Shown in pieces: positions 8,133 through 11,702 of a stretch of 29,365 nt of DNA. The DNA is taken from the IMG/VR virus record IMGVR_UViG_2693429774_000014; one strand, written 5' to 3'. The DNA is from a virus (taxonomy: Duplodnaviria; Heunggongvirae; Uroviricota; Caudoviricetes). A model generated the notes under the pieces. It was not told the DNA's origin. It was given only the letters and a program-made list of their open reading frames with translations, and ran no database searches. Each line of letters begins with the position of its first letter. The stretch's first letter is position 1. Position numbers and translations under genes: made by a program.

Positions 8133-8384
8133 TGAGATTAAAGTTTATTAGTTCAGATATTGATTGGCTCTTTTGTGGAGTAGGGTAGAGTTAGTGTGTT
8201 TGTCTGCTTGGTGCCAGCAGCGGATATGTTTAACAACAGAAAGCATTCAGCATGGTTAGTGGATTTGCAAAGTGGATTAGGATTTGAGAAACTTTGATGA
8301 AGTTGTAAAGCTTGTTTCTATAAAAATAGAAATTTAACTAATAGTTAAACACACCTCCAGCTTCATTGAAAAGGATTATTAGCT

Positions 8385-9284
8385 ATGATTGATCCACTTA
8401 TTAGAAACTTACAGAGTGATATTGCACTACTCCAGCTTTATATCGCGCAACGCAAACAGGCAGGCTTTCATGACATGGAAAGAATAATTGAGTCATTGAC
8501 CATCTTTATGTTTCGCGCGCTGAAAATGGGTGAACTGGTAAACATGAATCAGATTAAAGTTAATTTTCCCGCCATTGATTTAGCTGATAATAAAAACATG
8601 ATAGCAGTTCAAGTTACTACGAATGCAAGTCCAGCAAAAATTAAAAAAACTATCGAATCTTTTGAGAAAATAAATGAAATAGGAGAGAGTCTGAAAGATA
8701 AATACTCTACTTTATATATTTTTGGTTTTTGTAAAGCCTCAAGATACCTAACTCCAAGTTATTGTAAAATAATCGACCCCAGCTATTTCGTGAATGAACT
8801 TTGCGATAAAGCAGATGAAGATATGGTCCAGGATATGATTGACGCCATTCGACGCCATCATGATTATACATCATTACATCCATGGAGTGATAAAGATTCA
8901 CTCGAAATTATACTCAATATTATTAATCGCAATGCAATAAAACATCGGATGAGTTGCGAAGGCAGTCTGTCTGATATGCTCACTGGTTTAAAAGAAATTA
9001 ATGAAGTAATTACAAAAGGAACAATTCAACGTAAGCAACGTTCAAAATCGATATCTGACTTCAAAGATCAAAGCATGGTGAAATTTATGAGAGGTGTAAT
9101 GGATGATTTGTCTGTTATTCAAGCCATAGTGAACAAATCTAAAGTTAACCAAGGTGATATGGTTTATATAAGCCATGAAGATATGATTAATATTGATAAA
9201 TTAAAAGCTAAAATAGCAAGTGATTCATCAGAGATTGCAAGGCTAAATAATATTGATATAACACTAAATGTTGTTGATTTATAA
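8385..9284 (+). CDS. Uncharacterised 299-aa protein in an AT-rich cargo island; candidate defence/abortive-infection-type protein (family unverified)
   Basis: Clean ORF in a markedly AT-rich segment, preceded by 250 bp of AT-rich non-coding DNA. N-terminal region (…FPAIDLADNKNMIAVQVT…) looks like defence-island protein N-domains I recall (possibly SMEK-type); this is not verifiable from sequence alone. Confidence 0.65.
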   Translation: MIDPLIRNLQSDIALLQLYIAQRKQAGFHDMERIIESLTIFMFRALKMGELVNMNQIKVNFPAIDLADNKNMIAVQVTTNASPAKIKKTIESFEKINEIGESLKDKYSTLYIFGFCKASRYLTPSYCKIIDPSYFVNELCDKADEDMVQDMIDAIRRHHDYTSLHPWSDKDSLEIILNIINRNAIKHRMSCEGSLSDMLTGLKEINEVITKGTIQRKQRSKSISDFKDQSMVKFMRGVMDDLSVIQAIVNKSKVNQGDMVYISHEDMINIDKLKAKIASDSSEIARLNNIDITLNVVDL

Positions 9285-9598
9285 TTATCGATTTAGCAAA
9301 ACAGAGAATGCTTTGAAAGTTTCACCGAGAAATATTTATTGTGAACCTCCTTATTGTTTATCGACTTTTACTCTCCGCTCATTGCAGTACTGTCGGAGAA
9401 GGCTACTATGTACAAGAAGCAGCTAACATAAGCGAGCATCACTATTGATATTAGGAAGAGTATATAAAAACTTCATGCTGAACCTTACAAAAGTAGGTAA
9501 ACCGGCAATGGCCTAAGTGGCAGGGTCATGTTGATCCGGCACTGCCGAGCTAATAATTAACAAGCAAATCACTCTTTCTAATAATTTGTTGAAATAAA

Positions 9599-10258
9599 CT
9601 AAATATGTATATGTTTACCAACAACCACATATGAACTACCTGCTTTGCTCCATGATTTTATTATTTCTAAATTATTATCTGAGCATATTTTACTTACAGT
9701 ATCCACATCTAATAAACCATAGTAGAAAGCATTGCGAGAGTTTTGGTATATATACCCATGCAAATGTTTAATACCGCTCTCGTACCTCTTGAAATAAGAA
9801 CTTTTGTATTGATTGACAATCAGTGCTTCACCATCACTCTTTAATAATTCTCTAATCGCACTGAGGACTTTGTGAATTGTGGATTCACATGGAATTGCGG
9901 AAAGCACGTTTGCGCAAAGTATGAAATCATAATGATTTGTTATTTTATCTATATTTTCATAAGAAACAATATTAGCATTCTTATAGTTATTTATCACGTA
10001 ATCTGGAATCGTGGTTTGTACACCTCTGATAATTTGCACTCTTTCTAGTTGTCTTCTGGAATCTAAAAATGTCACAGTTTCAAATTTATTTACTAAATGT
10101 TCTGAATATCTAAGTTTTCCACATCCAAAATCAAGGGCATTGCCATTTTTATTAGTGCTTTCAATCTGTTTACAGAGATAGTTAGATGGCATAGTGTGCG
10201 GTTTCGCTGCATTTTCTGAACGTATGTTTATTCCATTTATTTTGTAATTCAAAATCAA
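9599..10258 (-). CDS. Class I SAM-dependent methyltransferase (219 aa), second gene of a two-gene minus-strand operon in the cargo island
   Basis: Motif I LDFGCGKLRYSEHL (GxGxG-type SAM-binding) followed by acidic VTFLDSRR. No DPPY/NPPY-type DNA-methyltransferase motif seen. Start is 6 nt after the stop of the upstream membrane-protein gene. Confidence 0.75.
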   Translation of the reverse strand: MILNYKINGINIRSENAAKPHTMPSNYLCKQIESTNKNGNALDFGCGKLRYSEHLVNKFETVTFLDSRRQLERVQIIRGVQTTIPDYVINNYKNANIVSYENIDKITNHYDFILCANVLSAIPCESTIHKVLSAIRELLKSDGEALIVNQYKSSYFKRYESGIKHLHGYIYQNSRNAFYYGLLDVDTVSKICSDNNLEIIKSWSKAGSSYVVVGKHIHI

Positions 10259-10264
10259 CCTCGT

Positions 10265-10972
10265 TTAAAAAATATTGTTATTGTTAAAGAATTCTTTTAT
10301 TTTGCTATCAGGTATTTGTCTTACTTGGCTTTCTGTTCTTGGTTTAACTGATGCTATGAAAATAAGGAAGTCAAATGCGACAAGAGAAATAATCCACAAC
10401 CAAAGATTAATTAAAGAGCCAGTAACAGAGAATATATTTGTTAATTTGGCGATACTTATTATTAAAATAGTAACAAATGCGATTACTGTATGTTCAAAGA
10501 AAACCCAAAAGTAATAAACTTTGTTCCAGAAAAGTTCAACGTAATGTTTGTCTTTTAACTCTTTAACTTCTGGATAATACAGTTTACTCATTACCTTGTG
10601 AGATTCATCAGTAGTTAATTTTCTCGTAACGCCTGCAATTTTTGCTAATGGTTTAATAATTAAATGACTATCCCACATCTTCCTTATTCCAATAATTTTT
10701 GCTACATTATTATGTAGATCTAAAGCTCCACTAATTACTGACCAAAAAACTGAAGATGCAATTGGTAATATGCCAAAGGTTAATATCCATTTAATAAATT
10801 CCTCGTAGTCTTTAACGGGGGGGATATACTTGGCATTAATGCCAACCAATGGCATGTAGCCATAAATGACTAATGATAGGTAAAATATAAATGTAGTAAT
10901 AAAAGTCGCCTTATGGAGCATAGGCAACATTTCATTATAACTCTTTGGTGGTTCTAACATTTTACTCTCCAA
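10265..10972 (-). CDS. Integral membrane protein (235 aa, several predicted TM helices), first gene of the cargo operon
   Basis: Multiple long hydrophobic stretches (e.g. FITTFIFYLSLVIYGYMPLVGI; VIAFVTILIISIAKL; LINLWLWIISLVAFDFLIFIA). AT-rich like its partner methyltransferase. Confidence 0.7.
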   Translation of the reverse strand: MESKMLEPPKSYNEMLPMLHKATFITTFIFYLSLVIYGYMPLVGINAKYIPPVKDYEEFIKWILTFGILPIASSVFWSVISGALDLHNNVAKIIGIRKMWDSHLIIKPLAKIAGVTRKLTTDESHKVMSKLYYPEVKELKDKHYVELFWNKVYYFWVFFEHTVIAFVTILIISIAKLTNIFSVTGSLINLWLWIISLVAFDFLIFIASVKPRTESQVRQIPDSKIKEFFNNNNIF

Positions 10973-11702
10973 ACACTCAAAAAAAAGCTAATCTTCTATA
11001 ATAACGAAATTCAGCTGGCACAATTAAAGATTAATTGCCACCAATTTCTTGATTTTATAATTTTATCTAAATGTTTTTGATTAATCTAGTCCTAAAAGAA
11101 ACCTACTGCATAAATATTTATGCTGATGACCCACTCCCTGTTCGTTAACACATAGCAACGTTAGTAATGCATCCTAAGTGATCAATATTTTTGCTAGCTT
11201 CATCTGCTCGCTCAAAGGGAACTATAATGTTGGCTTGCGTGTGACTTGGCATGTTTAAAGAAGTGCTGGTGGTGACTGGTTGCTGTTTTCCATTTCCACA
11301 GAACAAAATCATAGAAACTATACCCAGTAGTTGTATTGAATCACTGACGAGACAGCCTCATATTTATCAGGACTGGTGTACGTCCAATACAGGAGGTTGT
11401 GGTGCTGGTTCTCAAATGTGCGCTGGCTATTGCTGCTGTAATAGCAATTTATTGTCTTGCTGTTGTTCTTATGGATCACCTTTCTGATTGATTTCATATT
11501 GGCGAGGTAACGGTAGTTAAGTAGAATTGCTGCGGGTGCTTGAGGCTATCTGCCTCGGGCATCAACACCAAAGGCAGATAGAGAAAAGCCCCAGTTAACA
11601 TTACGCGTCCGGCAAGACGCTTAACATTAATCTGAGGCCATATCTATGCTCTACACACGTAGGTTAGCCTCTTACGTGCCGAAAGGCAAGGAGAAGCAGG
11701 CT

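Follow-up and report, generated by a model that had tools for sequence, protein, structure and literature searches.

Results

Here we describe an AT-rich cargo cassette of three genes (positions 8206–11126) in a 29,365-nt stretch of DNA from a virus of the class Caudoviricetes (IMG/VR record IMGVR_UViG_2693429774_000014), the whole of which is referred to as the window. The plus strand carries the complete gene of a SMEK-domain protein of 299 aa (8385–9284; RefSeq WP_000566848.1), which is convergent with a two-gene operon on the minus strand, composed of a ymfE homologue (10265–10960), encoding a four-transmembrane (four-TM) inner-membrane protein of 231 aa, and a ymfD homologue (9599–10252), encoding a class I S-adenosylmethionine (SAM)-dependent methyltransferase of 217 aa. 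The YmfE stop and the YmfD start are 12 nt apart. These lengths follow the ATG starts annotated by PGAP at 10960 and 10252; the open reading frames (ORFs) are slightly longer, with 235 aa for YmfE (10265–10972) and 219 aa for YmfD, counted from a TTG at 10258. A conserved spacer of 314 bp separates the convergent genes (9285–9598), and each transcription unit is preceded by upstream DNA belonging to the conserved block, namely 179 bp ahead of the SMEK gene (8206–8384, plus strand), with AAGGA 12 nt before the ATG, and 166 bp ahead of the ymfE–ymfD operon (10961–11126, minus strand), with GGAG 7 nt before the ATG at 10960. A sequence-only reading of the window had described an AT-rich segment with these three ORFs, in agreement with what we observed: in 400-nt windows, the G+C content (GC) is 0.285–0.38 over 8001–11400 versus 0.44–0.54 on either side, and 0.29–0.36 within the block itself.

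The ends of the cassette were defined from independent copies. Comparison of the window by blastn with a prophage of E. coli A42 (L002), an integrative and conjugative element (ICE) of Pectobacterium, where the copy lies beside McrBC and type IV secretion system genes (L033), and three viral contigs (L061, L062, L069) returned in each case a single alignment of ~2.95 kb at 82–85% nucleotide identity, intergenic DNA included, starting at 8206–8213 and ending at 11117–11126 of the window, with unrelated flanks. From these common ends, the unit measures ~2.92 kb, so that the island first delimited at 8133–11250 is real but its bounds have to be moved inwards to 8206–11126. Among themselves, the copies outside the window share a block that is 50–120 bp longer on the right side, towards the ymfE promoter. 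The idea that the island brings its own promoters on both sides could not be confirmed: the 179 bp and 166 bp of upstream DNA travel with the genes, but a sigma-70 consensus scan returned 13 sites versus 16.6 ± 3.8 in shuffled sequence, none of them scored in 8206–8384. The number of sites in a terminator consensus scan was not above that of shuffles either. Terminal inverted or direct repeats, sought as an explanation of cassette mobility, yielded short AT-rich matches at chance level only. An RNA element in the convergent spacer was considered and rejected, with no Rfam match and a fold z of −1.5, which is not better than shuffles.

The cassette was found in 153 of 5426 complete E. coli genomes, on the chromosome every time, and 146 of these genomes hold the block at an identity of at least 99%. 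The same trio in the same gene order is present on an IncHI2A conjugative plasmid of Citrobacter koseri, as judged by protein similarity and annotation, the block ends not having been compared. Together, the three genes form one block in at least six contexts, and the cassette as a whole has been transferred between four or more kinds of mobile element. A few copies, in the E. coli genomes NZ_CP148483.1, NZ_CP148498.1, NZ_CP151038.1 and NZ_CP024155.1, are interrupted by insertion sequences (ISVsa5, IS3 family, IS1A), and in one viral-contig copy (L047/L092) the SMEK ORF is split in two.

In the annotated homologous locus, the gene order reads dicA-dicC-YdaT-hypothetical-DUF977-[island]-hokD-...-DUF968-RusA-Q. 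The same slot of the K-12 Qin prophage holds flxA/ydfV/relB/relE immediately upstream of hokD, and it is this segment that the cassette stands in place of. To the right of the cassette, an Rfam sok match at 11534–11708 (114 bits) and a HokD ORF ending at 11858 make up a complete hok/sok type I toxin–antitoxin locus spanning 11534–11858. The annotated locus, the comparison with Qin and the sok match bear out the position proposed earlier, the relBE slot in a prophage of the Qin type, and the proposal of horizontally acquired cargo is supported as well. Within this lambdoid prophage of the Qin/DicA type, 8206–11126 forms a discrete cargo cassette, which is mobile and placed directly upstream of hok/sok. 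While it shares with the K-12 relBE cargo the position directly upstream of hokD/sok, its genes are much larger and without sequence or architectural similarity to relBE.

For the 299-aa protein, the predicted defence-type N-terminal domain could be confirmed. SMEK_N was matched in Pfam (PF21941, 79.9 bits versus a cutoff of 27, 2e-22) and in NCBIfam (NF033859, 105.1 bits versus a cutoff of 30, 1e-30), and the PADLOC model of Argonaute-associated restriction endonucleases was matched at 1e-20, over model positions 9–143 of 463 only. RefSeq names the product 'SMEK domain-containing protein'. The family comprises 108 homologous clusters, nearly all of ~300 aa, which align over their full length and are spread across Proteobacteria. 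A profile of 37 members retrieved one solved structure from the PDB, the Mrr domain of the Kordia jejudonensis Mrr-APAZ prokaryotic Argonaute (pAgo) system (26bh_D, E 5.7e-13), identifying aa 5–146 approximately (8397–8822, plus strand) as a SMEK/Mrr-like PD-(D/E)XK nuclease domain. Residues E36, D65, Q76, T78 and K85 are invariant in the 37 members, have aligned counterparts (E, D, Q, T and K) in the Kordia Mrr domain and sit on elements alpha1, beta2, beta3 and alpha2 of the AlphaFold2 model. A helical-bundle domain follows at about aa 168–290 (8886–9254, plus strand). Within short Argonaute systems, SMEK/Mrr is the nuclease effector fused to APAZ (PMC10810196, PMC12205087, bioRxiv 10.1101/2023.06.08.544223, 10.1101/2025.04.08.647717), and weak collateral nuclease activity is reported for the Kordia complex, as cited in PMC12205087, the Kordia homologue being the only one reported as active. 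In the profile and PDB searches, the C-terminal 150 aa of the window protein had no match, APAZ included. No Argonaute gene stands next to the window SMEK gene, whose neighbours are DUF977, YmfD, YmfE and hokD, and no Argonaute family is listed in those fetched SMEK loci that have called genes.

SMEK genes also stand alone, in an integrative island with a PDC-S06 ATPase, at a site by SymE and TacA, as a phage moron by DUF4062 and on a plasmid between ArdA/PsiB and StbA; in Vibrio a solo SMEK gene adjoins Abi_alpha, and in Pseudomonas SLATT_5. The gene of the SymE type I toxin lies just downstream of solo SMEK in hosts that are unrelated to each other, Cupriavidus (L006 7154–7369, 50% SMEK identity) and an Enterobacter-like genome (L041 7407–7871, 77% SMEK identity). 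In the Pseudomonas loci L003–L005, a same-strand run of SMEK (68% identity), a protein of 219 aa that weakly matches RiboL-PSP HEPN, the SLATT_5 membrane protein and a 309-aa protein of unknown type may represent a separate multi-gene system around the same nuclease.

The operon had been read as a multi-TM protein paired with a class I SAM methyltransferase lacking DNA-methyltransferase motifs, and this description was upheld for both genes. What could not be upheld is the view that the three genes defy assignment: RefSeq names the SMEK protein, and the operon is homologous to ymfE–ymfD of the K-12 prophage e14, genes which are themselves uncharacterised. By BLASTP, the window YmfE is 60% identical to e14 YmfE over 232 aa (E 1e-108) and the window YmfD 68% identical to e14 YmfD over 214 aa (E 4e-113). 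YmfE contains four hydrophobic segments and is modelled with confidence as all-helical (predicted template-modelling score 0.80). No similar solved structure was found, nor a match in any profile library searched, PADLOC included. Applied to YmfE, the positive-inside rule puts two conserved parts, the 65 residues linking TM2 to TM3 and the C-terminal tail, probably in the cytoplasm. Among the conserved residues are polar ones at the membrane interface and a glutamate in TM3 that is invariant (H83, R93, H139, E156). A SLATT-like pore was considered and discarded, as hhalign against a SLATT_5 protein gave a probability of 0.2% and BLASTP an E-value of 1.4. The family is small, with only 227 representatives in 1.84 billion proteins in an exhaustive profile search, almost all of 220–250 aa.

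YmfD scores above cutoff with Methyltransf_23 (36.8 bits, cutoff 27), Methyltransf_12 (36.4 bits, cutoff 30) and TehB. Invariant in the family are NAAKP, LDxGCGKLRY, F.DS..Q..R.Q, C.NV.SA.PC and NQ..SSYFK..E.G; motif I (LDFGCGKLRY) and the acidic motif II (F-L-D-S) are thereby included, and NAAKP at the N terminus and NQ..SSYFK..E.G after strand 5 are family-specific. Motif IV of the type (D/N/S)PP(Y/F/W) was found neither in the 219-aa sequence nor in the family alignment, and no DNA-methylase family is among the Pfam or NCBIfam matches. A restriction–modification arrangement, with the methyltransferase shielding DNA from the nuclease, was rejected on account of the missing DNA-methylase motifs and of the occurrence of the genes apart from each other. 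Relatives in the PDB are weak, namely the rickettsial protein-lysine methyltransferase PKMT2 (2e-4) and TehB (1e-3). A ymfD knockout of K-12 grows normally, and YmfD is not the source of mRNA m6A (PMC12096079). After replication inhibition, ymfD and ymfE are induced with most other e14 genes in a LexA-dependent manner (PMC11228462); in a DNA-damage time course they are induced little or not at all (PMC11002266). Shortly past ymfD, e14 has an annotated small RNA, C0293 (L011 3712–3783), on the opposite strand side of the att end.

YmfE and YmfD are an old and tightly coupled unit. A YmfE homologue touches YmfD in all 14 loci found with the YmfD profile in species-representative genomes and in three further loci from other protein homologues; the coupled loci include Pseudomonas, Marinomonas, Colwellia, Microbulbifer, a Dormiibacterota metagenome-assembled genome (MAG) and two Planctomycetota MAGs, the latter two with swapped gene order. 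A metagenome scan with a profile of distant YmfE members returned 80 loci, 62 of which had enough flank to be judged. A YmfD-type gene was directly adjacent in 47 of the 62, usually overlapping, within 500 nt in 6 more and absent in 9, so that ~85% of the evaluable loci, from several phyla, pair with YmfD. Among the directly adjacent pairs, 46 of 47 show the order YmfE then YmfD, and the exception (L132) was scored otherwise yet also reads YmfE then YmfD. This locus (198–1535 of Ga0315274_10358186) holds a 445-aa ORF with YmfE at 1–198 and YmfD at 230–441, which could pass for a Rosetta-stone fusion; since the last ~35 YmfE residues are replaced by unrelated sequence where the genes normally overlap, we consider it a probable frameshift and did not count it. 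The layout of the window, with both genes on the same strand and the membrane gene first, is that of e14 and of most loci. The nine loci without YmfD include a distant YmfE-like subclade that seems to be solitary (L127, L142, L157, L162, L177; N terminus 'MALNPIAPVTDYQSMLNRIFWFT...'). In this subclade, no YmfD-type gene was found nearby and the surroundings seem to be ordinary chromosome; partner or role may differ there.

The neighbourhoods of YmfE–YmfD include Hachiman in Pseudomonas and Amphritea, Olokun OloA/OloB in Microbulbifer, a DrmD-like gene in Dormiibacterota, PDC-S20 (a KAP NTPase) plus a convergent DUF2806 gene in Pseudomonadota, PDC-M66 on a viral contig (L067), McrBC in Pectobacterium and Lit in e14. 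Lit is a cell-death peptidase which aborts T4 infection. On the Pseudomonadota contigs L036–L039, the convergent DUF2806 gene encodes 343 aa and follows YmfD in the position that SMEK takes in the window, with the PDC-S20 gene on the other side. On a metagenome contig (L097, Ga0673078_0010907, 2059–3968) the order is reversed: the YmfD homologue (hhalign E 1e-52) comes first and, 3 nt further on, a protein of 395 aa begins. Residues 1–215 of the latter resemble YmfE (hhalign probability 97.9%), and a TIR_2 domain (2e-20) forms its C terminus, where YmfE has its predicted cytoplasmic tail. As TIR domains typify bacterial immune systems, this fusion is the strongest single hint that the context provides.

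Outside the cassette, ~370 bp between its end and hok/sok (11127–11500) are unannotated and contain odd Cys-rich and low-complexity ORFs on both strands (e.g. 11251–11487, 78 aa) as well as a terminator-like hairpin at 11426–11445; the other cassette copies carry a different, common 50–120 bp in this place. Just past hokD, 11867–11948 gives a sub-threshold Rfam match to the Hfq-binding small RNA isrK (25.8 bits versus a gathering score of 50, E 0.011). Three tRNA genes (15004–15253) follow the Q antiterminator; their anticodons according to ARAGORN are CAT (Met), TCG (Arg) and TCT (Arg), the CAT tRNA being labelled tRNA-Ile by RefSeq in the homologous locus.

Discussion

We infer a defence role for the cassette from its context and propose, with a probability of roughly 0.55, a model of two modules, in which the SMEK protein would be a self-contained nuclease held by its C-terminal domain until an infection cue arrives, and YmfE–YmfD would be a methyltransferase complex bound to the membrane, with a role in phage exclusion or defence. 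In the first module, the helical bundle would stand in for the APAZ-Argonaute of those short-pAgo systems that share this nuclease domain, keeping the nuclease silent and sensing the infection cue; the released nuclease would then degrade DNA, in a restriction-like or an abortive manner. In the second, YmfE, with its four TM segments and its conserved, predicted cytoplasmic juxtamembrane domain, could hold YmfD or its substrate at the inner membrane. YmfD would be a cytoplasmic class I SAM methyltransferase of the small-molecule, lipid or protein type, coupled to YmfE, and might either modify a lipid or small molecule, resulting in conversion or exclusion, or serve as sensor or regulator of a membrane effector. 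The tight and old coupling of the two genes suggests that their products form a complex. The more far-reaching claim, that YmfE–YmfD is a previously unrecognised two-gene system against phages or mobile elements, built on a membrane-anchored methyltransferase and in some cases equipped with TIR, and that solo SMEK is a second, single-gene nuclease defence in which a helical C-terminal domain replaces Argonaute as sensor, is put forward tentatively, as we consider it less probable than even.

Several observations weigh against the model. None of the three families has an experimental phenotype, and in the literature searched on ymfD/ymfE and the 'SMEK domain' no defence phenotype is reported. 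PADLOC 2.0.0 returned no matching system, only the Argonaute-associated domain model and a weak mad2 match (4e-5). Among the isolated-phage genomes of INPHARED, neither cassette DNA nor a YmfE protein was matched, and SMEK_N only partially, at 35%, in a Klebsiella phage. A recognised defence neighbour is present in only ~8 of ~22 independent YmfE–YmfD contexts, and several loci resemble ordinary chromosome (LysR, TrkH, AraC); the YmfE-like subclade devoid of YmfD points in the same direction. In the catalytic motif of SMEK, T replaces the canonical K, with K85 on the next helix, and nuclease activity is for this reason assumed from the Kordia homologue. Finally, the trio block has stayed intact through ~15–20% protein divergence and on four kinds of mobile element, which could reflect a functional tie between its halves.

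Such a tie would make the three genes one functional system, e.g. with the membrane–methyltransferase pair sensing or modifying something and thereby controlling the SMEK nuclease. Trio, convergent layout and ends are kept in the five further copies in prophages, viral contigs and the ICE, and the plasmid retains trio and order. The trio SMEK proteins form one clade in neighbour-joining trees, with solo SMEKs as outgroups, the pairwise identities of the three proteins co-vary (r 0.74–0.85), and 20 of 25 viral loci with YmfD have SMEK on the same contig. All three genes are under purifying selection, with a ratio of nonsynonymous to synonymous substitution (dN/dS) of 0.08–0.30 over synonymous divergences (dS) of 0.26–0.67 (SMEK 0.17–0.28, ymfD 0.28–0.30). 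Co-variation of identities is, however, expected from physical linkage alone, and both modules occur by themselves in close relatives. SMEK proteins 82% (L094), 77% (Enterobacter and related, five contexts) and 69% (Pantoea plasmid) identical to that of the window stand without YmfE or YmfD within 6 kb, and SMEK is absent from the YmfE–YmfD loci of e14, Yersinia, four viral contigs and all distant taxa, including each of the 80 distant YmfE loci. The trio clade of YmfD and YmfE itself also holds two pair-only loci (L066, L067). In addition, each module has its own upstream region, transcription is convergent and no fusion joins SMEK to YmfE or YmfD. The co-occurrence check on the trio that had been recommended at the outset thus gave a joint block, but not an obligate three-gene system. 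As the modules are found alone in close relatives, we favour a trio made of two modules that came together a single time and have been passed on jointly, and the simplest reading is one ancestral juxtaposition followed by block inheritance and occasional loss of SMEK. We therefore regard a single three-gene system as unlikely.

A different function of the pair has to be weighed as well. YmfE–YmfD could be a lysogenic-conversion or envelope-modifying module, in which the membrane-tethered methyltransferase would modify a lipid, a quinone or a lipid-linked precursor, alter the cell surface or physiology and so contribute to superinfection exclusion or host fitness rather than to immune sensing. 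YmfD falls into the UbiG/TehB-like small-molecule branch of class I methyltransferases, its homologues are labelled benzoquinol methylase in the sources, and it carries 'NVLSAIPC' after beta4 in place of the usual 'nvlhhvpd' segment; the interface residues H83, R93 and H139 and the invariant E156 in TM3 of YmfE fit with such a role, as does the location of the pair at prophage ends by integrases, where conversion genes lie, and the reduction of early biofilm in a ymfD knockout (PMC3105296). Islands of the immune type are indicated instead by the variant with a TIR domain and by the recurrent neighbours Hachiman, Olokun, McrBC and KAP NTPases, the pair also occurs outside prophages and in taxa of very different envelopes (Planctomycetota, Dormiibacterota), and a substrate of YmfD is not known, so that we judge envelope modification to be rather unlikely. 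That the cassette is selfish or neutral cargo with no anti-phage role, either as an addiction-type replacement of relBE or as decaying hitch-hikers, appears improbable. It does lie in the relBE slot beside hok/sok, its 146 E. coli copies of at least 99% identity reflect the recent spread of one prophage type, a few copies bear insertion sequences or a split SMEK ORF, and no phenotype is known for its genes, the K-12 ymfD knockout growing normally (PMC12096079). Yet the dN/dS values speak against decay, the coupling of YmfE and YmfD is kept across phyla, and family searches revealed no antitoxin-like small partner and no similarity to RelE or RelB among the three proteins; the viability of the ymfD knockout is, besides, a weak argument against YmfD being an antitoxin for YmfE.

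The window SMEK protein has the same N-terminal nuclease domain as the effector of short pAgo systems ('SPARMA' of K. jejudonensis; SPARDA-type systems), with the same E, D, Q-x-T and K positions, and like the short-pAgo effectors it is presumably a normally silent nuclease. In contrast to these, it comes without APAZ or an Argonaute gene, its nuclease domain is followed by a helical bundle of ~130 aa, and its gene is a stand-alone one that travels among prophages, ICEs, plasmids and islands. Type IV restriction enzymes such as Mrr, MspJI and AspBHI differ from it in domain order, which is reversed in SMEK, the nuclease domain coming first, and in that SMEK has no recognisable reader domain for modified DNA, a Q-x-T motif and the lysine on the following helix. 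YmfE–YmfD of the window resembles that of e14 in gene order, tight spacing and position as prophage cargo, and each pair lies beside a conflict gene of ~300 aa, i.e. the Lit peptidase gene on the divergent side in e14 and the SMEK gene on the convergent side in the window. The e14 pair is located at the att/int end and the window pair between the replication and Q modules, and neither has a known function. As in Kiwa, SLATT-containing and TM-TIR systems, a multi-TM protein is encoded together with a cytoplasmic enzyme in defence islands, and one YmfE variant carries TIR; unlike in these, YmfE is not SLATT, its partner is a SAM methyltransferase and no PADLOC model is matched. To our knowledge, none of the three uses such a partner. 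Solo SMEK and YmfE–YmfD are named but unstudied families rather than members of a characterised system: defence-type cargo in a prophage hotspot is familiar, while the solo SMEK architecture and the membrane–methyltransferase pair are new variants.

Conclusions

The sharply bounded block of 2.9 kb, shared by prophages and an ICE and with its trio present on a plasmid, illustrates cleanly how putative defence cargo travels in one piece between kinds of mobile element. Should the pair be a defence system, its mechanism, a non-DNA methyltransferase at the inner membrane, would be absent from the catalogued systems. For K-12, this would assign a function to the long-standing y-genes ymfD and ymfE, for which knockouts and clones exist, making a test cheap. 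The solo SMEK protein would show that the nuclease of short Argonaute systems can also operate by itself, in a self-contained module under another sensor, which would help to explain how such effectors are silenced and switched on.

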